From Lysobacterales bacterium (lineage in GTDB: Bacteria; Pseudomonadota; Gammaproteobacteria; Xanthomonadales; SZUA-5), in NCBI GenBank assembly GCA_022844165.1, contig JALHMH010000057.1, positions 1 to 17,269 of the forward strand: a stretch of 17,269 bases of DNA, given 5' to 3'. Of this stretch, positions 2,761 through 16,396 are shown piece after piece. Each line of letters begins with the position of its first letter. The first letter of the stretch is position 1. The notes below the pieces were generated by a model, which saw nothing but the letters and a program-made list of their open reading frames with translations, was not told the DNA's origin and did no database searches. A program made the translations under genes and the position numbers.

Positions 2761-4257
2761 TTGAGTGCCGTACTTGCCCAACTTGATCACGTTGATACTC
2801 GACGTCGCGATACGTCCCGCCAGCTCGATCCGGCGCGCAAGGCGGCACTAGGTCAGTTTATGACCCCGGCTAACACCGCCCGCTTTATGGCCGATATGTT
2901 TACCTCGACCACTGGTCGCACGGTTCGGCTTCTCGATGCCGGTGCGGGCGTCGGCTCGCTGACGAGTGCATTTCTTGACCGTTGCCTTGCCGGTCCCTGT
3001 GCGATGGTGGAAGTCGGCGCATGGGAGGTTGATCACGCCATGCGCGAAGGGCTGGCAAGCACCATGGCGGACTACAAAGAAGTGGCAGCTGCAGCCGGCC
3101 GACGATTGGATGCTCAGGTGTATGCGGAGGATTTTATCGAAGGCGCAACGCGGGGACTGTTCGCCGGATCCCGCTGCGGCTTCACACATGCGATTCTCAA
3201 TCCGCCGTACAAGAAAATTTCGACATCATCGGAGCATCGTTTGTTGCTCCGACGCGTCGGCATCGAGACGGTAAATCTATACGCGGCATTCGTTGCCGTC
3301 GCTCTCGATATGCTTGCACCCAATGGTGAGCTGGTGGCTATCTTGCCGCGCAGCTTCTGCAACGGTCCATACTATCTCCCGTTTCGGGACTACGTCTTCA
3401 GCCGCGCCGCCTTGCGTGCCATGCACTTGTTTGAGCGCAGAAATCGAGCTTTCAAAGAAGAGGGCGTGCTGCAGGAAAACGTCATCATTCATCTGGTCCG
3501 CGGTGCAAAGCAAAGCGACGTTCGCGTGACTACCTCAAGCGACGACACTTTTTCCGATCTTGTCGAGGCCTCGTACTCGTTCGACACCATCGTTAAACCC
3601 GATGACGCGCAGCGCTTCATTCACATACCGACGGGCGGCCTCCAAAGCGCTGTCGAGGCTTCGACCGTGGCCCGTCAGACTTTGGCCGCTTTGGGCCTGA
3701 CGGTGTCGACAGGCCCGGTGGTCGACTTCCGCATGCGTGAACACTTGTGCAAGATGCCGGAACCCGGAAGTGTTCCGCTTCTTTATCCCGCCCACTTCGT
3801 CGGCGTTCGAACGTCATGGCCATTGCAAGGCTTTAAGAAGTTCAATGCAATCGATCTCAACGACGAAACGGCGCGCTGGCTCTACCCTGCGGACCGCTAT
3901 GTCGTTGTTCGCCGTTTTTCATCGAAGGAAGAACGGCGGCGTGTCGTCGCATCTATCGTTGAGCAAGACGACTTCAACAGCACGTACATCGGATTCGAGA
4001 ATCACTTAAACGTTTTTCACACTGGTCGGCGTGGCTTGCGAGAAGACGTCGCCTATGGCCTTGCCGCGTGGCTCAACTCGACGGCCGTCGACGAACATTT
4101 CCGCCGCTTCAACGGTCACACGCAGGTCAACGCGACTGACCTTCGACAGATGCCATACCCGCCGCTTCCAGTTCTTGAGAAGCTCGGCGCTTGGTACATC
4201 AAGCACACAGCAGCCGAACAGCAAGAGATCGACAGAAAGATAGAGGGCGTTCTTTGA
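2761..4257 (+). CDS. Type II N6-adenine DNA methyltransferase (M.BsuBI/M.PstI-like, Eco57I-domain)
   Basis: GQFMTP, motif I LLDAGAGVG, catalytic NPPY, C-terminal FENHLN and FNGHTQVNATDL. TTG start with GAAAGGA RBS at 2744-2750. Confidence 0.93.
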   Translation: MSAVLAQLDHVDTRRRDTSRQLDPARKAALGQFMTPANTARFMADMFTSTTGRTVRLLDAGAGVGSLTSAFLDRCLAGPCAMVEVGAWEVDHAMREGLASTMADYKEVAAAAGRRLDAQVYAEDFIEGATRGLFAGSRCGFTHAILNPPYKKISTSSEHRLLLRRVGIETVNLYAAFVAVALDMLAPNGELVAILPRSFCNGPYYLPFRDYVFSRAALRAMHLFERRNRAFKEEGVLQENVIIHLVRGAKQSDVRVTTSSDDTFSDLVEASYSFDTIVKPDDAQRFIHIPTGGLQSAVEASTVARQTLAALGLTVSTGPVVDFRMREHLCKMPEPGSVPLLYPAHFVGVRTSWPLQGFKKFNAIDLNDETARWLYPADRYVVVRRFSSKEERRRVVASIVEQDDFNSTYIGFENHLNVFHTGRRGLREDVAYGLAAWLNSTAVDEHFRRFNGHTQVNATDLRQMPYPPLPVLEKLGAWYIKHTAAEQQEIDRKIEGVL

Positions 4258-5213
4258 CAAGAGCAAAACTTCTTCGCGACGCTACCGCGATTCTCACGGC
4301 GCTGGGCATGCCCCGTGGCCAGCAGAACGAGCGCTCTGCGCTGACCCTGCTCGCACTGGTCAACCTTAAGCCAGGCGATAAGATATGGGCGAAAGCCCAT
4401 GACGCTGGCACACTTCGCATTCGCGACGTACTCGATTTTTGCCGCAACGTTTTCAACAAGCTTTATGCGGAAAACACGCGCGAGACTTTTCGCCGCCAGA
4501 CCATGCACCAACTGATCGACGCCGGGATCGCACTTTACAATCCCGACGATCCTGGCCGGGCCATCAACAGTCCACACAACTGCTATCGAGTAGCACCTGA
4601 AGCGCTGCAAGTTATTCAGGCGTACGGGACAGCGCAATGGGCAGCCAAGCTCGAAGTGTTTCTGCTATCGAAGGCTACGCTTGCCCAGCGTAACGCCAGT
4701 GCACGCGACCAGTTCAAAGTGCCAGTCAAAATCAGCGACGACCAAGCAATCACACTCAGTCCTGGTGAACATAGCCAGCTGATCAAGGCCATTGTCGAGG
4801 ACTTCGCAGAGCGGTTTGTCCCTGGCGCCGATCTGATCTACGTTGGTGATACGGGAGAGAAATGGGGGTACTTCAACGAGCCGTTGCTAGAGCAGCTTGG
4901 CGTGAAGGTCGGTAGCCATGGAAAGATGCCGGACGCTGTCTTGTACTACCCCGAACGCAAGTGGCTGGTACTCGCCGAAGCCGTGACCAGTCACGGCCCG
5001 GTCGATCCTAAGCGACATCGCGAATTGGCAACTCTTTTTGCCGACGCAACGGCTGGGCTTGTCTATGTAACTGCCTTTCCATCTCGGCAAGTCATGCGGA
5101 GTTACTTGCCGGAAATCGCCTGGGAAACAGAAGTCTGGTGCGCTGATGCACCATCGCACCTAATCCATTTCAACGGTGAGCGCTTCCTTGGCCCCTACGC
5201 CAGCAAACCGTGA
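4254..5213 (+). CDS. BsuBI/PstI-family type II restriction endonuclease (probably recognises CTGCAG)
   Basis: YAENTRETFRRQTMHQ, HGKMPD, EAVTSHGP and IAWETEVW..HLIHFNGERFLGPY are family hallmarks. The probable TTG start at 4254 overlaps the MTase stop (TTGA), with AGAGGG upstream. Confidence 0.92.
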   Translation: MTRAKLLRDATAILTALGMPRGQQNERSALTLLALVNLKPGDKIWAKAHDAGTLRIRDVLDFCRNVFNKLYAENTRETFRRQTMHQLIDAGIALYNPDDPGRAINSPHNCYRVAPEALQVIQAYGTAQWAAKLEVFLLSKATLAQRNASARDQFKVPVKISDDQAITLSPGEHSQLIKAIVEDFAERFVPGADLIYVGDTGEKWGYFNEPLLEQLGVKVGSHGKMPDAVLYYPERKWLVLAEAVTSHGPVDPKRHRELATLFADATAGLVYVTAFPSRQVMRSYLPEIAWETEVWCADAPSHLIHFNGERFLGPYASKP

Positions 5214-5255
5214 CGAGACGATTGTACGGACCCATCGGAAGCAGCTGCCCGGCGA

Positions 5256-5445
5256 TCAAGGCGAGCGCTGCACTGCATTCTCATGGGGTTGCTGACGCCG
5301 GCCCTTGCGCTCGCTCGCAACGCTGAGCGCCATTTTGCTGATTTGCGTGCGCTTGACGAGCCCATCGAGTAAGACGATCAGCGCTTGCTGATCGCTGTCG
5401 GAGAATTCATCGACCTGTTGCACGAGTCGATGCAGCTCGGCGACG
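5256..5445 (-). pseudogene. C-terminal remnant of an XRE/HTH-type transcriptional regulator
   Basis: AELHRLVQQVDEFSDSDQQALIVLLDGLVKRTQ resembles the C-terminal helices of XRE repressors. There is no HTH N-terminus, and the sequence switches to Rhs coding on the opposite strand at about 5446. Confidence 0.55.
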
Positions 5446-8400
5446 CGCACGACACAACTCTGGACCTACGGCGCACTCGATCGCGAACTGAGCTTCACGG
5501 ATCGCAATGGCATCGTCACCCACTACGTGCGCGATGGGGAAGGGCGGGTGCGCGAGCAGCGCCGCGCGGGGCGGGTGGAGCTGAGCAGCTACGATACGGC
5601 CGGCCGACGACTCACCGCCACCGATGCACAAGGCAGCGTCACGCGCTACTTCTACGATGCCGCCGGGCGCCTGGAGCGCGAAGAAGGCCCGGCCTCGGCC
5701 ATCGCCCGCTACACCTATGGCCCCGGCGATGAGCGGCTGAGCAGCACCGACCGCGAAGGTATCGTCACCACCTACACTTACGATGATCGCCTGCGGCTGC
5801 GGACGGAGAGCAATGCGATGTCGCAGACGATGCGCTACGACTACGACAACCGCGATCTGCGCATCCAGATGGAACGCGCCGAGTCGCCCGAGCAGATTTG
5901 GCAATACAGCTACGATCTGGGCCGGCGTTCGATCAGCGTGACCGATCCGCAAAATGACACCACCGTGTACGAATACGATGCGGTGAACAACCGCACGGCA
6001 ATGGTGCGCCCCGGCGCGCAGCGCACCGAATACGATTACGACGATCAAAACCGGCTGATCGGCGTGCGCCATCCGCAGGGGCACGTTGAGACATTTGTCG
6101 TCGATGCGCAAGGCAATCGCACCCGCTGGACACGCGAGAACGCGCAAGTCATCGAGTATGATTTTGATGGCTTGAATCGTAACGTGCAGACCCGCATTGT
6201 GCCGGCGGCGGACGATGGCCTGAGCAAAGTCGAACGCAGTTACGACGGCAACGGCAATCTGCTGACGGCCACCGAGACCCGCAACGGCACGAGCAAAACC
6301 TGGAGCGCCAGCTACGATGCGTTCAATCGCCGCTTCCAATGGACCGATGTCAACGGCGTTACGCACACGCAGAGCTTCGATGCGCTGGACAATCGCACCG
6401 GTCGATCTGGCCCGGAAGGCAATACCGTTTACACCTACAACGCGCTCAGTCACCTGACCTCCGTGACGCCACCCAATCGCCCACCTGTGTCGATGACCGT
6501 CAGCCCCGCCGGGCGATTGCTGGCCATCGATCACAACAATGGCGTGGTCACACAAGTCAGCCGCGATCCGGCGGGCCGCGTCACGGGCCTCGCGCACAAA
6601 CTCGGCGCCAGCGCACTGTTGCTGCTCAGCTACACACTCGATGCCAACGGCAACCGCACCGCCGAAGTGTGGCAACGCGGCAGCGAGCGGGTTGAGATCG
6701 GCTACACGCTGGATCTGGCCGAGCGCCTGACCAGCATCACCACCGACGGCCAGACGCGCAGCTACACCCTCGATCAGCGCGGCAATCGCACGCAGGAGCA
6801 AAGCCCCAGCGAAACCCTGGTGCACACCTACGACGAGCGCGACCGGCTCATCCAAACCCAGCGCAACGGCAGCCCACAGGCCAGCTACAGCTACGACGCA
6901 GCGGGGCGGCAAACCCGCAAGACCGAAGGCGGCGTGAGTTGGGACTACGTCTATGACGCCAACGACCGCCTGATCGAAGTGCGCCAGGGCGGCACAACCA
7001 TCGTCAAATACGAAGTCGACGCGTTCGGCCAACGCCGCCAACGCGAGGCCAGCGGCCAGATCGAACGTTATCACTGGGACGGCACCAGACTCGCATCGAT
7101 CAGCAACGCCGTCGGCAACACACTGGCCGACTACCAACACGCCTACAGCTGGCCCATCGCCAGCAAAGAAGGCAGCAACAGCAGAACCCTGCTCACCGAC
7201 CGCCACGGCACCGTACAAATGCTGCTCGACACCGGCGCCATCGTCGGCCACACCCGCAGCGACGTGTGGGGCGTCGATCGCGCGCAGAGCGGCGAACAAA
7301 GCCGATTAGGCCATACCGGGTATCTCAAAGACCCACTGCTCGATCAGCTGTACGCGCAAGCGCGCCAGTACACACCGGGGATAGGCCGGTTCACCAGCAC
7401 CGACCCGTGGACCGGCGATGCGATGAATCCGGTGACGTTGAACAAGTATCTGGCGTTCAATGGGAATCCTGGGTCGTTCTTGGACCCGGATGGGCGATGC
7501 GCATCGGCGCCGGTGGTGTGTGCGTTCGGATTTGCGCGCAGCGAGGAAGAAAAGACCACGGTGCTGCGGAATTTTGCGAACGAGAATCCGACGCGCGGTC
7601 GAACCGTTGGCGCCGTGGTGCGTATTGGGCAAGGTGTTACGGCACCGATCTCCGCTGCGGATACGTTGGCATCGGCCGTTGCGGGCGATTCTGCGGCACA
7701 AACCGCGGTAGCCAACTCGGCATCGACGGTTGCCGAGTATCTGACGCAACGCACCAAAACACTCGTGACCGAGGGCATCGGCGAGTTGTTGCGCCAAGAT
7801 GTCACTGCTTTCGCGACTGGTCTTGGCGAAAACGCGGGAGAGGTGGCCGTCGCCGGCAGGCGTCGCGACTATGTCGGCCAGGGCATGGCCGGCGTCGATC
7901 TTGCGGGCCAGATGGCGGCCGTTGTGCCGGTGTTGCGCGCAACGTCGATTGCCAGAGCCAATGTCGCGCGAGCGGGCATCGAAGGAACGACGCCGATTCG
8001 ACTGGCAGAAGCGCCAGAAGGTGGCGTCGGCGCACAAATTGATGCCGAGTTAAACGTTGGATTCGATGCGGCTTCAGATCGCACGATTTCGCTACCGTCA
8101 GTCAGTTCGAAGGTGTCGCCTGACGTTGATCAGATTGATCGATTGATGGCACGATTTGGCCTCAGAGCACTGCGGGAATCGGGTGGCGACTTCCGCTTGT
8201 CTGAAAGCAAATTCGAGAGATACGCGTCGGCACTTGATGCGCGTCTGCAAGGTACAAGAAGCCCATATCGAATTGAATTCCAACCTGCCGCCATTCCTGG
8301 TGAGGGCCGAGTTCCCAATTTCATCCACCTTCATCACGGTGGTTCAAGTAGCCCGCTGATATCGGATGCACAAGGAAACCCAAGGCTGTTTGCTTACCCG

Positions 8401-9005: not shown

Positions 9006-10142
9006 GTGGCAGAGAGCGCAAACCAACACTATGTTCCGCAGTTCTATTTCCGCGGATTTTCCTCGGATGATCGGAGCGTATGCGTACTGAATCGCAGTAC
9101 TGGGAAGACAATTCCAGTCGCCTCGATCAAGGGGCAAGCGTCCAAGAAGTACTTCTACGGTGATGCTGCTGTCGAGAAGAGACTTCAGCAGGTAGACGGC
9201 GCTTTCAGCGGAGTTGTTCGGCGATTTCGGGAATGCGCAGCTTTCGACGAATTCTCCGGGGAGGACTACTACACCCTTCTGCAGAACATCATGCTTCAGA
9301 AGTCTCGGACCATGTCGGCGCGGACCCGAAGCAAGGCAATGCAAGACCACTTACTACAGCTGCACCTAGAGATAGGAGTTCATACGGACGAGTCACTTGA
9401 TGATGAGACTCGTCAAGCCTTCTTGAACTTCGCACGGGAAGCAGAGGCTGATCCGAGGCAGTACCAAACCCTTGAGATGTCGATAGCTCTCGACCGCGTC
9501 GACTCCCTGCTGGATCTGCGTCCTGTTGTGCTCGAAAACAGGACGAACCGGCCATTCATCTTTGGCGATGCTCCTGTCGTCTTTAGCAACCCCCATCTCC
9601 GCAAAGTCCGCTTGCGCGGTGTCTTGGGTGCTCAGACTCCCGGGCTCATGATCTTTTATCCACTGAGCCCCTTCAGACAACTTGTCTTCGTCGACGAAGA
9701 CGTCTATCGACTGAAACGCCAGACATCAGACTTCTTGCGAGTTCGCGACCTAAGAGACGTCTCTACCTTGAATCGGCTTCAGATTCAGAACGCGTCTTCC
9801 GCTGTTTACTTCCATACATCAGACTTCTTGCGAGTTCGCGACCTAAGAGACGTCTCTACCTTGAATCGGCTTCAGATTCAGAACGCGTCTTCCGCTGTTT
9901 ACTTCCATGACTATAAGTTCGCCCAGTACGTCGCCTCACTGTGGCAAGAGGAACGGGCGCGGCTAGCCGACCACCGCGGCGCCGTGGTCGAAGCACCTGG
10001 ATTCGACCGGAGCGGGAAATCCATGGGAAACATCTTCCACTCCTTCGACAGGCAATTGCCGCTGATTCCCCGGCTTAGCTTCGTTCAGTACGTCGAAGTG
10101 CCAGAACGCGAATACCGATTCTCACGCCGCAAGGAGCGTTAA
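9006..10142 (+). CDS. DUF4238-like protein
   Basis: N-terminal NQHYVPQFYFRGFS, plus FIFGDAPV and IFYPLSP, as in DUF4238. Probable GTG start at 9006, just after the immunity gene stop. Confidence 0.85.
   Translation: MAESANQHYVPQFYFRGFSSDDRSVCVLNRSTGKTIPVASIKGQASKKYFYGDAAVEKRLQQVDGAFSGVVRRFRECAAFDEFSGEDYYTLLQNIMLQKSRTMSARTRSKAMQDHLLQLHLEIGVHTDESLDDETRQAFLNFAREAEADPRQYQTLEMSIALDRVDSLLDLRPVVLENRTNRPFIFGDAPVVFSNPHLRKVRLRGVLGAQTPGLMIFYPLSPFRQLVFVDEDVYRLKRQTSDFLRVRDLRDVSTLNRLQIQNASSAVYFHTSDFLRVRDLRDVSTLNRLQIQNASSAVYFHDYKFAQYVASLWQEERARLADHRGAVVEAPGFDRSGKSMGNIFHSFDRQLPLIPRLSFVQYVEVPEREYRFSRRKER
9723..9908 (+). repeat. Exact 93-bp tandem duplication (31 aa, in frame)
   Basis: 9723-9815 equals 9816-9908, giving TSDFLRVRDLRDVSTLNRLQIQNASSAVYFH twice. 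Confidence 0.97.
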
Positions 10143-10328: not shown

Positions 10329-10415
10329 ATTCCACGCATGCCGGTCACCAATTCCACGCCATGCCGGTCGCACATTCCACGGCATGCCGGTCACCGATTC
10401 CACGGCATGCCGGTC
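10329..10415 (+). repeat. Four 22-23-bp IS21 transposase-binding terminal repeats
   Basis: ATTCCACG(g/c)CATGCCGGTC at 10329, 10351, 10374 and 10397, directly downstream of istB. Confidence 0.92.
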
Positions 10416-12089: not shown

Positions 12090-12412
12090 GCGGCAACGAC
12101 GGCGGCCGACACGAATCGCACGGAACCCGGCGCGGCTTAAGCGCTGGCGCGCTTGAAGCCGACGCCTGGCGTGAGCGCGGGCCGAGTGGACGAGCGCGGC
12201 GACCGACACGCGACTCGATCCGACACGACACGCGGCCCGCGAGGACAAGCGCGCAATGGACGCCGTCACGCGGCTTGCTTGTGGCCGCCTGCGCCGCTTG
12301 GCGCGCGCATGCGGCGCAAGCCGCGCGCCGGCAGCGGTTCCGCGCCATGCCGGTCGCAGAGTCCAAGGCATCAGTAAGATGCGCGCGAGCGGGAGCCCAC
12401 TTGCCAAGGCAC

Positions 12413-12440
12413 AAAAAAAGCCGCAGATAGCGGCTCTTTC
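12413..12440 (-). terminator. Intrinsic terminator of the minus-strand gene ending at 12460 (possibly bidirectional)
   Basis: A7 run plus the stem-loop AGCCGC-agata-GCGGCT, followed by CTTTC. It lies about 20 bp past the stop codon. Confidence 0.8.
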
Positions 12441-12459
12441 CGTTCCATGTGGTGACCGG

Positions 12460-12951
12460 CTAGGCCGCCCGCTGAACCTCCGGCCCGTCCGTGGGCTTGG
12501 ATGGGCGTCTGCCACCGGAGAATCGCCCGGACAGATCGCGACGCAGGGATTCCAAGCCTTCGCTACGGCCGGTCAGCTTCAGCAGTCCATAGGCTTGCAG
12601 TGCAACGGTCATGATGTCGTTACCGAGTGCCGCATCGGTATCGTTGCCACGCTCACACAAGCTGGTCAATCGAGTCAGCACAGGGCGTAACTGATCCAAC
12701 ACCTTGAGATCGGCAATGGCTTTGTTGACTGGAACATTGGCCGGAATCATCTGCGGATTCTGGCTGATCACTTGCAAGGCCTGACGGCTAAAGCTCTCAC
12801 TCTTGATTCCCATCTTGCGCATCCGGCGCTTGTCCATTTCGCTCAGGGCAATCAGCCCAGTTAGTTCGGTTTCCAACGTGGTCAGCGCCGCGTTCACGGC
12901 AGCGATTTGGGTTTCAGTGAGGGTCAGGTTTACGAGGTTTTGCATGGTCAT
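12460..12951 (-). CDS. Conserved-looking all-helical hypothetical protein (163 aa)
   Basis: MTMQNLVNLTL..LIALS..RRMRKMGIKSESF..QNP..LGNDIM..ALQAYG with a basic tail. AAGGA RBS upstream of ATG 12951 and a terminator downstream. Function unknown. Confidence 0.8.
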   Translation of the reverse strand: MTMQNLVNLTLTETQIAAVNAALTTLETELTGLIALSEMDKRRMRKMGIKSESFSRQALQVISQNPQMIPANVPVNKAIADLKVLDQLRPVLTRLTSLCERGNDTDAALGNDIMTVALQAYGLLKLTGRSEGLESLRRDLSGRFSGGRRPSKPTDGPEVQRAA

Positions 12952-13141
12952 AGTGACTTTCCTTTTTAGCTTTTGATAGAGCGTCCGCACTGTGCGGATC
13001 GCTACCCGGCGTTGTTTCCGGGGTGTGGCTATCAGACGCCCGCGCCATGTCACTGGATGACACGTTGGTTAAGTACTACCGAACGAAGGTCTGGAAGGGC
13101 AGGACGCCCTTGCGCCAAGCACCGACGATCGATGCGAAAGC

Positions 13142-13565
13142 TTCGCGAACGAACGCCGCACATTCGATATCGGAGCTCAGACCTTCGCGATTGAATGGTG
13201 AGCATTCGATGACGAACAAAATTTGTTCGATCGCGAATGAAATTCGTTCGATGGCAAACGAAATCCACTCAATGGCAAACGCCGATCATTCGCGATCGAA
13301 TGGTCGAGCATTCAACGACGAACGCCAGCGGTTCGCGATCGAATGGTCGAGCACTCAACGACGAACGCCAGCCATTCGCGAGCGAATGGTTGAGCATTCA
13401 ACAACGAACGCCAGCCGTTCGCGATCGAATGGTCGAGCATTCAATAACGGAGCTCAGACCTTCGCGATCGAATGGTGGGTATTCAATGACGGAGGTGCGA
13501 CCTGCGTGGTCGAAGGATGAGCATTCAACGGCGAACCCTGGTCATTCGTTTTCGAACCGTCTGGG
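13142..13565. repeat. Array of ~20 units of 21 (22) bp, each starting with a TTCG-N4-CGAA-like palindrome; central part is a 43-bp higher-order repeat
   Basis: Unit starts: 13142, 13163, 13184, 13205, 13226, 13247, 13268, 13289, 13311, 13332, 13354, 13375, 13397, 13418, 13440, 13461, 13482, 13503, 13524, 13545. Confidence 0.9.
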
Positions 13566-13700
13566 CTTTGGAGGCCGCCGCCGGCCATCGCGACGGCGCT
13601 ACCATCTGGTGCCGCGGCCCCGGCGCTGCTGACTTCGGTCGGCGAAGCGCTGGCTGGCGCGGCGAATACGAGCCCACTTCACCCTTAAGAACTTCACCGC

Positions 13701-14660
13701 ATGGAACGCACAGAACGCATTGCCCTGCTGCATGGATTGCTCACGCGCAATCGTTACGGCCTCAGCAACGACCGCCTGATGCAGGAAGCGGGGTGCTCGC
13801 GCTCCACGCTGTATCGAGATCTGAGCTTTATGCGCGATACGCTGGGTGCGCCGCTGGTCCACGAAGGCGATCCGGGGCGCATCTGGCGCTATGTGCATCG
13901 TGAATCCGGCGCCTTCCAATTGCCCGGCGTTTGGCTGAGCGCAGACGAGTTGTACGCGCTGATGCTCGCGCAGGAAGTTTTGCAGCGCAGCGGCGCCGGC
14001 TTGCTCAGTCAGGCGCTGGGTCCCTTGCAGCCGCGCATCCAAAAACTGCTGGGCGACAAAGCCCGCCGTCTGCACCGGCTGCGCGTGCTGCGCACCCAGG
14101 CGCGGCAAGGCAACCAGACAGTCTTTCGCATCGTCACCGAAGCCGTGCTCGAAGGCCGCCAATTGCGCTTTGTCTATCAGGCGCGTTCCACACAAGAAGA
14201 GCGCGAACGCCAGGTCTCCCCGCAGCGCCTCACGCACCATCGCGACAACTGGTATCTGGACGCCTGGGACCCAACGCAAAACAGCCTGCGCCGCTTCGCC
14301 CTCGACCGCATCCGCAAACCGGAGCTTAGCGATGAGGCCGCCATCGAACTGCCCGCCGCCCAGCTCGACACCCACCAGGCCGCCGGATACGGCATCTTCG
14401 CCGGACCGATCATCGCCACCGCCGTCATCCGCTTCACCCCACACGCCGCCCGCTGGATTGCCGACGAGCACTGGCACCCCGCGCAACGCCAGCGCGTCCT
14501 GCCCGACGGCAGCCTCGAACTCACCATCCCGTACGCCAACCCGCGCGAGCTGCTGATGGACGTGCAACGCTACGGCGCCGACGCCGAAATCCTCGCGCCG
14601 GTGGAGCTGCGCGAGCAGATGCGGGGGATGCTGGCGGCGGCGTTGGGGAGGTATGGGTAG
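13701..14660 (+). CDS. WYL-domain transcriptional regulator (wHTH-WYL-WCX; YafY/PafB-like)
   Basis: HTH CSRSTLYRDL, WYL motifs VSPQRL..NWYLDAW..RRFALDRI, and C-terminal YGADAEILAPVELR. Confidence 0.95.
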   Translation: MERTERIALLHGLLTRNRYGLSNDRLMQEAGCSRSTLYRDLSFMRDTLGAPLVHEGDPGRIWRYVHRESGAFQLPGVWLSADELYALMLAQEVLQRSGAGLLSQALGPLQPRIQKLLGDKARRLHRLRVLRTQARQGNQTVFRIVTEAVLEGRQLRFVYQARSTQEERERQVSPQRLTHHRDNWYLDAWDPTQNSLRRFALDRIRKPELSDEAAIELPAAQLDTHQAAGYGIFAGPIIATAVIRFTPHAARWIADEHWHPAQRQRVLPDGSLELTIPYANPRELLMDVQRYGADAEILAPVELREQMRGMLAAALGRYG

Positions 14661-14840: not shown

Positions 14841-15908
14841 GTGAGTTCGATGCTGCTTTGCCTTTCTTCAGGTGCAACTCCGCGCTATCGGCAGGACATA
14901 CTTCGGGCACTGTCCAAGCCAGAAGGTATGGAGTTGCGTTTCCGTTACGAACTCGATCTCGTCGAGGAGGAACTGAAGCAAGGCATTGCGTGTTTAGTTG
15001 GTGAGGAAGTCTGTATCGCTTATCTTGATCGTAGCAAGTCGAATAAAATGCCGAAAGTGGTGCCAGTTCGGAGCGGGATCGTCACAAATGTTGCGGTCCT
15101 TGGTGACTTCTGCGTTCTTGACTTCCAGTTGGGAATGCACTCTGCGGCGAACGACATAGACAAGCTCAATGATGAACTGCGTTTTGCAGTCCCAACCCTG
15201 CCGAAGTGGGATTCTGATGCGAATTTGATTGGCCAGTTTTGTCATCGCTTGGCGAATGTCCCGCCTTCGCTTATGAAGACGAACACCATCGAAGGCTGGC
15301 AGCGAATCTGCAAGGAATTGGCGACACATGGGGACTTTGGGACCGAGCCTTTTTTTTACCGAGTTGAAGGCATTTTTAACCTTGACACTAAAGCGCTGAT
15401 TCCAATCAATAGCGGTGCTTTTCACATCCCGTCAGACGCCTTCCTTGAACTGCGCCTGCTGCACTATGCGCCGTCACTCGACGTGAATAAGACTGGCTCT
15501 AGCGACACTAGTTGGCTGTCTGCACAGACCAAAGAGGACGACCTCGCAATCATCAGCAACCCTAGTCTGGCGATAGACTCCGGCTACGATCTCAAGGCCA
15601 TCCGAATGCGTGCGGCAACCGTCATGCGTGATTCGGAGAGCGTGATAACGCTGACGCGCAAGCCTCCCGCAGTGGCTGGTGTGGCGTCAGATTCCATATG
15701 GGACTTCGACCTGCCGGTTCGAGTAACGCGGAACCTCAAACGCCTGCTTTGGCAAGGTATGTTGGTTGGCCTGCTGGTCGCAAGTCAGGGTCTTGTCGCG
15801 ATTTGGAACAACGAGCACATCGCTGACAAATTGGTGCCTATGGTTCTGGTCGTGTTCCTGGGATTGGCAACTGGATACGTGGCAACCTTCAACTTGCGGA
15901 AGCCCTAA
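14841..15908 (+). CDS. Hypothetical protein with two C-terminal transmembrane helices
   Basis: 355-aa ORF. Hydrophobic segments LLWQGMLVGLLVASQGLVAIW and LVPMVLVVFLGLATGYVATF. Visibly more AT-rich than the WYL gene. Confidence 0.8.
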   Translation: MSSMLLCLSSGATPRYRQDILRALSKPEGMELRFRYELDLVEEELKQGIACLVGEEVCIAYLDRSKSNKMPKVVPVRSGIVTNVAVLGDFCVLDFQLGMHSAANDIDKLNDELRFAVPTLPKWDSDANLIGQFCHRLANVPPSLMKTNTIEGWQRICKELATHGDFGTEPFFYRVEGIFNLDTKALIPINSGAFHIPSDAFLELRLLHYAPSLDVNKTGSSDTSWLSAQTKEDDLAIISNPSLAIDSGYDLKAIRMRAATVMRDSESVITLTRKPPAVAGVASDSIWDFDLPVRVTRNLKRLLWQGMLVGLLVASQGLVAIWNNEHIADKLVPMVLVVFLGLATGYVATFNLRKP

Positions 15909-15913
15909 GTTTC

Positions 15914-16396
15914 ATGCACACAAAAATCGAAGTGAAACACCAAATGGATCGCAAGAAACTTGCTCTGTTGGTCGGGATTCGACGGACTCTTGTTAAGCAC
16001 TTCGCTCCTGATACTGCTTACCCGGGGACGCAGTCCTCAATACCTAGTGCTGGTCATTGCGCGATCGTCGCCGCGATTGCTGCGCTGGAGATCGGTGCGG
16101 GATTAGCCAGCACCTCAGTGCAGGGCGTTAGACACTGGATAAACCGGGTGTCGGATGGCAACTTGTTTTGGGATGTCGACTTAACTGGCGATCAGTTCGG
16201 CTTGCCAGAGATTCAGTTCGCTGAGGCCGGAAAACTCTATCCGGAGGTGAGGGACGAGAGCATGACGGCGCTGAAGCCCGAAACCCTTCAGCGTGCGCTC
16301 AAGTTGGCACAGCGCGCCGGCCTGCGTGATGTCATCCCGCCTCTCATGGCAATGCTGAGATCCAAGCAGGACCTCGAGGAGATTGTCCAAGCCTGA
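15914..16396 (+). CDS. YunG-like protein with putative papain/transglutaminase-type Cys-His-Asp triad
   Basis: PSAGHCAIVA, RHWINR and DVDLTGDQF motifs. Starts 5 bp after the upstream stop, so probably co-transcribed. Confidence 0.68.
   Translation: MHTKIEVKHQMDRKKLALLVGIRRTLVKHFAPDTAYPGTQSSIPSAGHCAIVAAIAALEIGAGLASTSVQGVRHWINRVSDGNLFWDVDLTGDQFGLPEIQFAEAGKLYPEVRDESMTALKPETLQRALKLAQRAGLRDVIPPLMAMLRSKQDLEEIVQA

Follow-up and report, generated by a model that had tools for sequence, protein, structure and literature searches.

What does a row of some twenty evenly spaced palindromes do between two divergent genes? We addressed this question for an array of 20 repeat units at 13142..13565 (no strand assigned) of the window, which is the entire 17,269-base-pair (bp) contig C57 of a 4.68-Mb genome in 59 contigs. 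The array lies between the gene of a 163-amino-acid (aa) helical protein, an open reading frame (ORF) of the uncharacterised family P0001 (12460..12951, minus strand), and a divergent regulator with HTH_11, WYL and WCX domains (13701..14660, plus strand), much as a preliminary description of the sequence had named its flanks. The array is real, is linked to the helical gene family and has a constrained core, and its period, polarity and presence persist among relatives while its sequence turns over. The reading that we favour, with slightly less than even confidence, is that it is a non-coding, one-face, phase-locked lattice of putative dyad protein-binding sites acting on DNA.

A dyad scan bore out the approximately 20 TTCG-N4-CGAA dyads reported in the preliminary description, with units starting at 13142, 13163, 13184, 13205, 13226, 13247, 13268, 13289, 13311, 13332, 13354, 13375, 13397, 13418, 13440, 13461, 13482, 13503, 13524 and 13545. 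The motif was matched perfectly by nine units, with one mismatch by seven, with two by three and with three by a single unit (13268). All 12-mers quoted in that description were present, including the four occurrences of TTCGcgatCGAA. It had also given a constant spacing of 21 bp, of which the phase held (15 of 19 steps were 21 bp and four were 22 bp) but not the uniformity, given the four longer steps and a 43-bp double unit in the middle of the array. Three zones could be told apart: seven 21-bp units with A/T runs in their linkers (13142-13288), alternating units of the types TTCGCGATCGAA+tggtcgagca and TTCAACGACGAA+cgccagccg that make up the 43-bp double unit in 4.5 copies (13289-13481), and degenerate units (13482-13565). 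Tandem Repeats Finder assigned the array a period of 43 bp in 6.1 copies, and a period of 21 bp to 13205-13264. With up to one mismatch, TTCGNNNNCGAA occurred 38 times in the window relative to 12.3 ± 3.5 times in 200 shuffles, none of which reached 38, and 16 of the 38 matches fell inside 13142-13556. The dyad-pair pattern at array spacing had no second place in the 4.68-Mb genome. Four DNA metagenome runs yielded no more than short contigs at low depth. Of these, one of 467 nt, probably from the sample of origin, was identical over 13171-13637, and one variant contig carried the array units in a different order.

Upstream regions of helical-gene homologues were tested for arrays at 31 fetched genome loci (32 with the window) and 80 fetched metagenome loci. 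An array was scored when autocorrelation reached at least 0.5 at a lag of 21, 22 or 42–44 in a scanning window within 1.2 kb upstream of the gene; for metagenome loci, all lags from 15 to 49 were scored and a locus was counted if its best lag lay in 21–23 or 42–44. At least 200 nt of upstream sequence made a metagenome locus examinable, which applied to 66 loci, the other 14 being too short. Arrays stood beside the gene at 10 of the 32 genome loci and 12 of the 66 examinable metagenome loci, as well as at 9 of the 11 examined loci of the window's own WYL subgroup (see below). Periodicity beside homologues, which the preliminary description had proposed as a test of its reading, is thus present, and comparable arrays exist beside homologues of both genes.

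The distribution of arrays followed the phylogeny of the helical protein. In a quick maximum-likelihood tree of 93 proteins, with support from the Shimodaira-Hasegawa-like approximate likelihood-ratio test (SH-aLRT), clade A (16 rows, support 99) had 14 strong arrays, one weak array and one unexaminable locus, and clade B (13 rows, support 97) had six strong arrays, four weak arrays and three loci with none. No arrays were found in the remaining 64 rows, which comprised a 45-row Dokdonella-type clade and a 19-row clade of Aquabacterium and others. The tree left out loci L034 and L037, whose proteins are short, L102 and L112, whose genes are partial, and any metagenome locus cut at the gene; L043 was scored as lacking an array on just 191 nt of upstream sequence. 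Both array-bearing clades belonged to the Lysobacterales, and their arrays comprised 10–30 units with a period of 21, 22, 43 or 44 bp, usually upstream of the gene. In two further genomes from other families, all five copies of the gene had a 21/42-bp tract within ~700 bp, three upstream and two downstream.

The sequence of the units was far more variable than their spacing. There were at least a dozen unit sequence types, all with a base period of 21 or 22 bp that was often doubled to 43/44 bp (multi-unit periods were 42, 43 or 44 bp), and most units contained a short dyad. The window and same-genus loci had units of the form TTCGATCGCGAA / TTCGTCGTTGAA; others had CGTCGTTGGGC (L012), tCATCGwTGr (L013), two 43-bp types (L010), CGACTACTCCGCA (L025, L027 and L028), GAGTCTCTAAAAGTCTTGAC (L108), GTCTCGCGACAC (L112 and L158) or ATCTGCGCGCAGAT with GTCTGGCGCCGAGTAC (L042 and L162). 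Polarity was retained: across nine arrays the core CGYCRTYG had 39 occurrences on the gene strand as against two on the opposite one, at spacings that were multiples of 21–21.5 bp, whereas outside the arrays in the same nine loci the two strands carried it about equally.

As a control, the array test was applied to the window's own genome, in which 20 tracts passed, relative to 7–17 at control lags. Several of these tracts had a period divisible by three and were therefore presumed to be coding repeats. Two of the 20 lay directly upstream of the two helical paralogues, namely the window array and a degenerate 21-bp array on contig C1. A third array on contig C9 (G000:C9 ~960-1355, locus L170) had units related to those of the window (TTCGGCGTCGAG, TTCGTCGTCGAGTG and AATTTTTG linkers) with periods of 21/42/64 bp; it was located near a contig end, where a gene for a 934-aa Ser/Thr kinase-TPR protein starts ~270 bp downstream of it and no helical gene is close by. 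The link of arrays to the helical family is thus strong but not exclusive.

Constraint on the core was seen both within and between arrays. Among the units of the window array, mismatch to the column consensus was 0.10 in the dyad arms, 0.54 in the central 4 nt and 0.51 in the linker (chi-square 73.8), statistics that are inflated because the units share descent and fall into two alternating types, so that their independence is overstated. In the more diverged arrays of L012 and L013, which still step by 21/22 bp, mismatch in a nine-column core was 0.10–0.13 vs 0.35–0.42 elsewhere (corrected p of 5e-4 and 3e-6, respectively). When the window array was compared with the orthologous array of the same-genus genome G001 (three gaps), 18 of 120 arm positions had changed vs 93 of 277 other positions (Fisher p = 1.4e-4), such that, under an arm mask defined on one of the two sequences, arms changed half as fast as the rest. 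The arrays of L007 and L038 had unchanged copy number and no gaps at ~4% divergence; their substitutions (5/88 in arms vs 13/313) showed no arm depletion, a non-significant difference on small numbers. Where the genes were 75–80% identical, the arrays flanking them could no longer be aligned. Conserved cores with free linkers, together with slower arm change between orthologous arrays, lend support to the suggestion in the preliminary description that selection acts on both motif and phase.

Arrays also occurred at helical-gene loci with no adjacent WYL gene, beside DarT and a Macro-domain protein (L013), Cas1 with Cas2-3 and DUF6979 (L008) or ApbE (L027), and the paralogous cassettes L027 and L028 had array, leader and gene in common. 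These loci tie the array first to the helical gene. Judged by such comparisons of sequence, the array belongs to the helical gene and, in this lineage, is part of a 2.3-kb module that has the WYL regulator, divergent from the helical gene, at its upper end. Its lower end is a terminator-like hairpin with a T-run 3' of the helical gene (12405..12450, minus strand; terminator scan), with a GC-rich stem at 12419-12435 followed by TTTTTTT, and similarity to the G001 locus stopped there. The block from the WYL stop codon to the helical-gene terminator was shared by L007 and L038 at 94–100% identity, gap-free over the array and between unrelated flanks; over the same block the window was 91% identical to L007 in the WYL gene and 79% in the array plus helical gene. 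Regulator, array and gene often make up a discrete portable module of this kind inside defence islands.

The WYL side of the module was examined across 299 genomes of the order. A WYL orthologue of 50–55% identity was nearly universal (276/299 genomes), and the subgroup of the window's regulator (65–99% identity) occupied 12 places. Nine of the 11 places examined had a divergent helical gene with a periodic tract in between, one had neither and one was cut by a contig end. The distance between the WYL gene and the helical gene was mostly 704–761 bp, with a range of 619–970 bp. The place with neither array nor helical gene is a second WYL copy in the window's genome, 99% identical (G000:C12:11220-12176; L156 5221-6177). 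Its similarity to the window began exactly at the ATG, and its upstream sequence matched the region before the same-genus WYL gene, which suggests an exchange of the ORF alone. The spacer between array and WYL start codon in the window (13566..13700, plus strand), which presumably holds the WYL promoter and contains one TTCG-N5-CGAA dyad at ~13634-13646, was unrelated to the region upstream of the C12 copy.

How might such an array act? As a DNA lattice, it would present one dyad site every 21–22 bp, or two helical turns, with all sites on the same side of the helix. Because sites two turns apart share a face, proteins could load side by side, and many copies of a dimeric protein, or a single filament, may do so near the helical-gene promoter. 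Binding would control or buffer the adjacent promoters, and the array might then work as an operator that is bound cooperatively, as a sink for titration or as a platform for nucleation. The lattice offers the best fit to the combination of period, dyads, conserved cores with free linkers, fixed polarity and behaviour as a module. By analogy, its geometry matches that of known protein-binding arrays such as sopC of the F plasmid. According to the part of the source used here, sopC consists of 12 repeats of 43 bp, each with an inverted repeat to which one SopB dimer binds, and bases between the sites add no affinity (PMC2910045). The likeness lies in a tandem array of 43-bp period with short inverted repeats; the window array differs from sopC as described there in having two dyads per 43 bp, and in a unit sequence that varies by lineage while the candidate proteins barely change.

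The preliminary description had proposed the helical protein or the WYL regulator as the binding partner, and neither gained from the comparison of loci. No covariation of the array core with the WYL helix-turn-helix or the helical N-terminus was visible. The predicted recognition helix of the WYL regulator (SRSTLYRDL) and the N-terminus plus basic helix of the helical protein were both near-invariant across loci with completely different array cores, so that sequence-specific reading by either protein is unsupported. An AlphaFold model of the helical protein was all-helical with five helices (predicted local distance difference test score, pLDDT, 74). It had no Pfam, NCBIfam, PADLOC or PHROG family and no Foldseek match in the PDB at E ≤ 0.001, and thus no DNA-binding domain or fold recognisable in the Pfam and PDB searches. 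VIA-align wide gave generic long-helix matches only (Z up to 6.4), a PDB sequence profile a single stray match (E 0.037) and the ESM Atlas unnamed clusters only. None of its 98 close homologues carried a functional name, although the family extended to 2371 cluster representatives at E ≤ 1e-3 in a large library. We regard the helical protein itself as a possible but doubtful binder and the WYL regulator as an improbable one, and leave the remainder of our expectation to another host factor or to a purely structural role.

Several of the observations above weigh against the lattice reading. The constancy of both candidate proteins beside changing cores counts against it, as does the lack of a recognisable DNA-binding domain in the helical protein. 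Some two thirds of the helical-protein family lack an array; two arrays (L165 and L167) sit downstream of the gene, after its terminator; and the C9 array has no helical gene at all. On the side of constraint, the unit statistics are inflated by shared descent, the arm mask for the G001 comparison came from one of the two sequences compared, and L007 and L038 showed no arm depletion. The period itself could have been inherited by descent instead of being selected.

A more elaborate version of the lattice reading, which we consider rather improbable, would make the locus a chromosomal nucleoprotein device of a type not yet described. The helical protein, or the paired WYL regulator as a sensor of single-stranded DNA (ssDNA), would assemble along the 0.4–0.7-kb lattice and read it by its two-turn geometry and dyad shape, not by a fixed sequence, and the array would do the sensing or buffering within a portable module heading phage-defence cassettes. 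For example, stress from replication or supercoiling might cause it to extrude hairpins or single strands, which would switch the WYL regulator.

An unlikely alternative is that the array acts as RNA. It would be transcribed, most probably toward the helical gene, into a chain of ~20 small hairpins that sequester a protein or are processed, in the manner of a type III antitoxin, or that serve as a sponge. The position of the array upstream of the gene, its fixed polarity toward it and the location of the loci in defence islands are as this account would have them. A type III antitoxin consists of several RNA repeats, which form an assembly with a toxin that is an endoribonuclease, according to the part of the source used here (PMC8860590), and the arrangement resembles ToxI/ToxN, as described there, in having tandem repeats directly upstream, and on the same strand, of a gene of ~160–170 aa in phage-defence neighbourhoods. 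Upstream position with fixed polarity was seen at most loci, while the two arrays that follow the gene's terminator depart from it. The 43–44-nt double unit is close in length to the ToxI repeat, which is reportedly 36 nt. In the gene sense, the second unit type forms a 7-bp stem with two G-U pairs; the opposite strand would have A-C mismatches in their place. Both strands of the window array folded better than shuffles, the sense strand at -175 kcal/mol (z -5.25) vs -167.3 (z -3.9), and the sense strand folded better in 15 of 22 arrays, with those of clade A favouring the gene strand. However, dyad DNA sites yield the same folding signal, and the remaining 7 of 22 arrays folded equally well or better on the other strand (L027 and L028 strongly), a preference that tracked G+T content.

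Other results also spoke against the RNA account. In type III systems every toxin gene comes with its repeat antitoxin, whereas most family members have no array (none at 22 of 32 genome and 54 of 66 metagenome loci), a loss that a toxin dependent on its antitoxin would not tolerate. Type III toxins are endoribonucleases of the families ToxN, CptN or TenpN. No toxin family, of ToxN type or other, appeared in the Pfam or PADLOC results, the protein is modelled as all-helical, and the copy number of the repeats is far higher than in repeat RNAs of the ToxI/ToxN kind. Rfam at E ≤ 1 over 12300-14000 gave just three sub-threshold rows at chance level, and a promoter scan found no sigma-70-like promoter upstream of the array on either strand.

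We likewise hold it unlikely that the array is a functionless minisatellite, in which an ancestral regulatory or palindromic unit of 21–22 bp was amplified by slippage or unequal recombination, then homogenised and shuffled anew, with period and position kept by descent. The fast turnover of units, to the point that arrays beside 75–80% identical genes cannot be aligned, is what such a process would produce, and higher-order repeats of 43, 64, 86 and 129 bp are typical of unequal exchange. Some arrays were degenerate (L125, L011 and L026), and that of L028 was interrupted by a transposase fragment. A neutral array should nevertheless diverge evenly, and here cores were kept while linkers were free and arms changed half as fast as the rest between orthologues. 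Moreover, the array was kept in all examinable members of clade A across ~35% protein divergence, and copy number was unchanged between two strains ~4% apart. Across the at least a dozen unit types, no array had 20 bp as its base period, nor 24 bp or anything longer; only L097 peaked at a lag of 23, for which Tandem Repeats Finder gave 44. Nor were lags of 21/22/42–44 generally enriched in the window's own genome, as the 20 tracts vs 7–17 at control lags indicate.

It is far less probable that the array serves a plasmid, phage or integrative element as its centromere, of the sopC or parC type, or as a field of iterons, with the helical protein as the centromere-binding or initiator protein. 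In-phase tandem direct repeats of 21–22 bp, a double unit of 43 bp, the period of F sopC, and a gene for a small protein adjoining the array all recall such systems. Partition centromeres are, in the part of the source used here, typically multiple tandem repeats served by small binding proteins that lack sequence similarity (PMC2910045), a form that the tandem dyads fit. By eye, the helical N-terminus QNLVNLTLTETQ is reminiscent of how ribbon-helix-helix proteins begin, with a strand and then a helix, although just one of 27 members gave a weak RHH_1 match (E 0.74). On the F plasmid, the centromere adjoins sopA and sopB; here, the 16 ORFs of the window and the 105 ORFs tested from the neighbourhoods contained no ParA, ParM, TubZ or Rep family, so that a partition nucleoside triphosphatase (NTPase) operon was missing from both sets. 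Searches of 72,556 plasmid records with the helical protein and with the array gave no match for either, and the protein had no relatives in a viral contig collection. Many loci lay on contigs of 100 kb to 1.4 Mb with core genes adjacent, and the gene was present in 2–4 copies per genome with arrays that differed between copies. In the absence of a partition NTPase and of any plasmid match, the "centromere-like" label of the preliminary description is unlikely to apply in its strict sense.

Iterons and StbA-type systems are instructive in the same respect. Plasmid iterons (R6K, RK2 and P1) are direct repeats of ~17–22 bp spaced ~22 bp apart on one helix face, of which extra fields titrate or handcuff; they occur in 3–9 copies in the origin and are bound by a winged-helix Rep protein encoded nearby. 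The window array shares the phase of iterons, with 20 units at 21/22-bp steps, but not their setting, as no Rep family was found in the window or its neighbours, no plasmid matched, and the arrays are chromosomal, with 10–30 units and several copies per genome. StbA of plasmid R388, as far as the part of its description used here goes, is a small multifunctional DNA-binding protein that acts on a repeat array (stbS) near its own operon with no plasmid-encoded NTPase partner; in contrast to the helical protein, it has an identified DNA-binding domain and belongs to a conjugative plasmid. The stbS repeats are said to be 9 bp long, relative to 21–22 bp here. The window array therefore resembles the phased arrays of plasmids in geometry and is not a member of their classes, having no replicon, NTPase or initiator.

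That the array belongs to a known repeat class or is protein-coding is scarcely credible: its palindromic units, with neighbours that are roughly inverted copies, recall bacterial interspersed mosaic elements (BIMEs), and a 165-aa ORF (13023-13520) overlaps it, but there were no unique spacers in a whole unit of just 21–22 bp (12-bp dyad plus recurring 9–10-bp linker), the unit was not dispersed (one DNA match in 4.68 Mb and one related array, that on C9, in a genome-wide scan), the overlapping ORFs had no family, and no reading frame survives steps of 22 and 43 bp. CRISPRs are identical repeats of ~23–50 bp with unique spacers of similar length, and repetitive extragenic palindromic (REP) sequences and BIMEs are dispersed in tens to hundreds of copies through intergenic regions. 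A CRISPR assignment was rejected on the short unit, the recurring linker and the lack of a Cas family in the window. The preliminary description, which recognised no CRISPR, REP or iteron type, agrees with these comparisons, as each class fails in a defining feature; similarly, a heptad-repeat ORF, which it had raised as a competing explanation of the motif, does not account for frame-breaking periods of 22/43/44 bp.

Phased arrays are well understood on plasmids as iterons and centromeres, and in the present case this geometry goes with an uncharacterised gene family that is chromosomal and multi-copy, often packaged with a WYL regulator that heads defence islands (DarTG, Cas, restriction-modification, an unknown membrane protein). 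If a protein loads on the array, as the lattice reading would have it, the array would represent a new regulatory or architectural element for defence islands and a first handle on an unannotated protein family of more than 2000 clusters. The puzzle is that period, polarity and dyad form are conserved and sequence is not. A search of PubMed Central and bioRxiv full text found no description of a WYL/array/helical-gene module, and the array may best be termed a phased array of putative binding sites in an undescribed setting. In the part of the source used here, unexplained intergenic direct repeats of 6–42 nt were catalogued without function in Geobacter bemidjiensis (PMC2996986); they resemble the window array as unexplained intergenic repeats, and that part gives no tie to the helical-protein family.

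Between array and helical gene lies the leader and promoter region of the latter (12952..13075, minus strand), with a ribosome-binding site, hairpins at ~12984-12998 and ~13005-13023 and, at 13048-13062, the inverted repeat TGTCA-N5-TGACA. In alignments of 29, 16 and 20 loci, the inverted repeat and both hairpins kept fixed places, with some compensatory changes. The ~120-nt leader was conserved across Lysobacterales (L007-L028, L034 and L125), where the inverted repeat reads GTCTCA-N5-TGAGAC. A TNNNAT element follows ~10 nt past the inverted repeat, with no -35 hexamer; a sigma-70 promoter scan of 12350-13750 returned 0 sites, and the leader matched no Rfam family. Readings of the array units as sigma-54, extracytoplasmic function (ECF) sigma factor or plant-inducible promoter (PIP) box sites (TTCGB-N15-TTCGB) were dropped by eye, as their spacings do not fit.

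The regulator itself matched Pfam WYL (7e-21), WCX (2e-18) and HTH_11 (5e-5) as well as the PADLOC WYL models, and its nearest solved relatives were PafBC (3.5e-23) and DriD-type chains. Its HTH-WYL-WCX architecture, in which the HTH is N-terminal and WCX serves dimerisation, is that of BrxR, CapW, DriD and PafBC. The BrxR operator consists of one or two boxes with 10–11-bp inverted repeats and a 5-bp spacer (PMC9122601), and DriD binds a single ATACGAC-N7-GTCGTAT site, DriD-type promoters having no -35 boxes (PMC13004042). As in these settings, an HTH-WYL-WCX regulator is present, here with the array in its upstream region; BrxR and DriD operators have no 20-site arrays, however, and the window array is unlike known WYL boxes. 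It is the inverted repeat at 13048-13062, outside the array, that has the box geometry of BrxR and DriD, with its 5-bp spacer and no -35 hexamer after it, and it is thus a candidate WYL box. By analogy, the leader could comprise a WYL-type (DriD-like) promoter and a structured 5' untranslated region. The helical gene would then be driven from a WYL-type promoter with the array immediately upstream.

The window as a whole is an accessory-gene island, with RHS-repeat proteins, a PstI-type restriction-modification pair, a DUF4238 protein and an IS21 IstB fragment. The WYL regulator is followed by a 355-aa protein that belongs to no family and has a C-terminus of hydrophobic character (14841-15908; only a weak PHROG match, 4.5e-5) and then by a YunG-like protein (15914-16396); both are candidates for WYL-controlled cargo, which varies among relatives. 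Two other tandem repeats were present in the window, one of 93 bp x 2.0 with 98% identity within the DUF4238 ORF (9719-9908) and one of 23 bp x 3.8 in a small ORF beside the IS21 IstB fragment (10329-10415).

The helical gene was sparse, occurring in 3 of 401 sampled Pseudomonadota genomes with 2–3 copies in each. In Aquabacterium and other Burkholderiales (L029, L031, L033, L035 and L037), it was found with no array and with a different conserved leader of its own, and its neighbourhood there was a conserved one of polysaccharide type (AT3-SGNH acyltransferase, DUF5672, glycosyltransferase and T2SSE ATPase). At L013 (3202-5138), the array is flanked on one side by the helical gene and on the other by a divergent DarTG-type pair, comprising DarT (an ssDNA ADP-ribosyltransferase) and the Macro-domain protein, with a Cas3 HD protein beyond that pair. 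The L028 array (span 3829-5830) is split in two (3829-4285 and 5657-5830) by an insertion with a Mutator-family transposase fragment. Elsewhere in the window's genome, G000:C4:211679-214334 contained tracts of 61-bp period with a 28-bp GC-rich palindromic repeat, which looks like a true CRISPR locus and is unrelated to the array.

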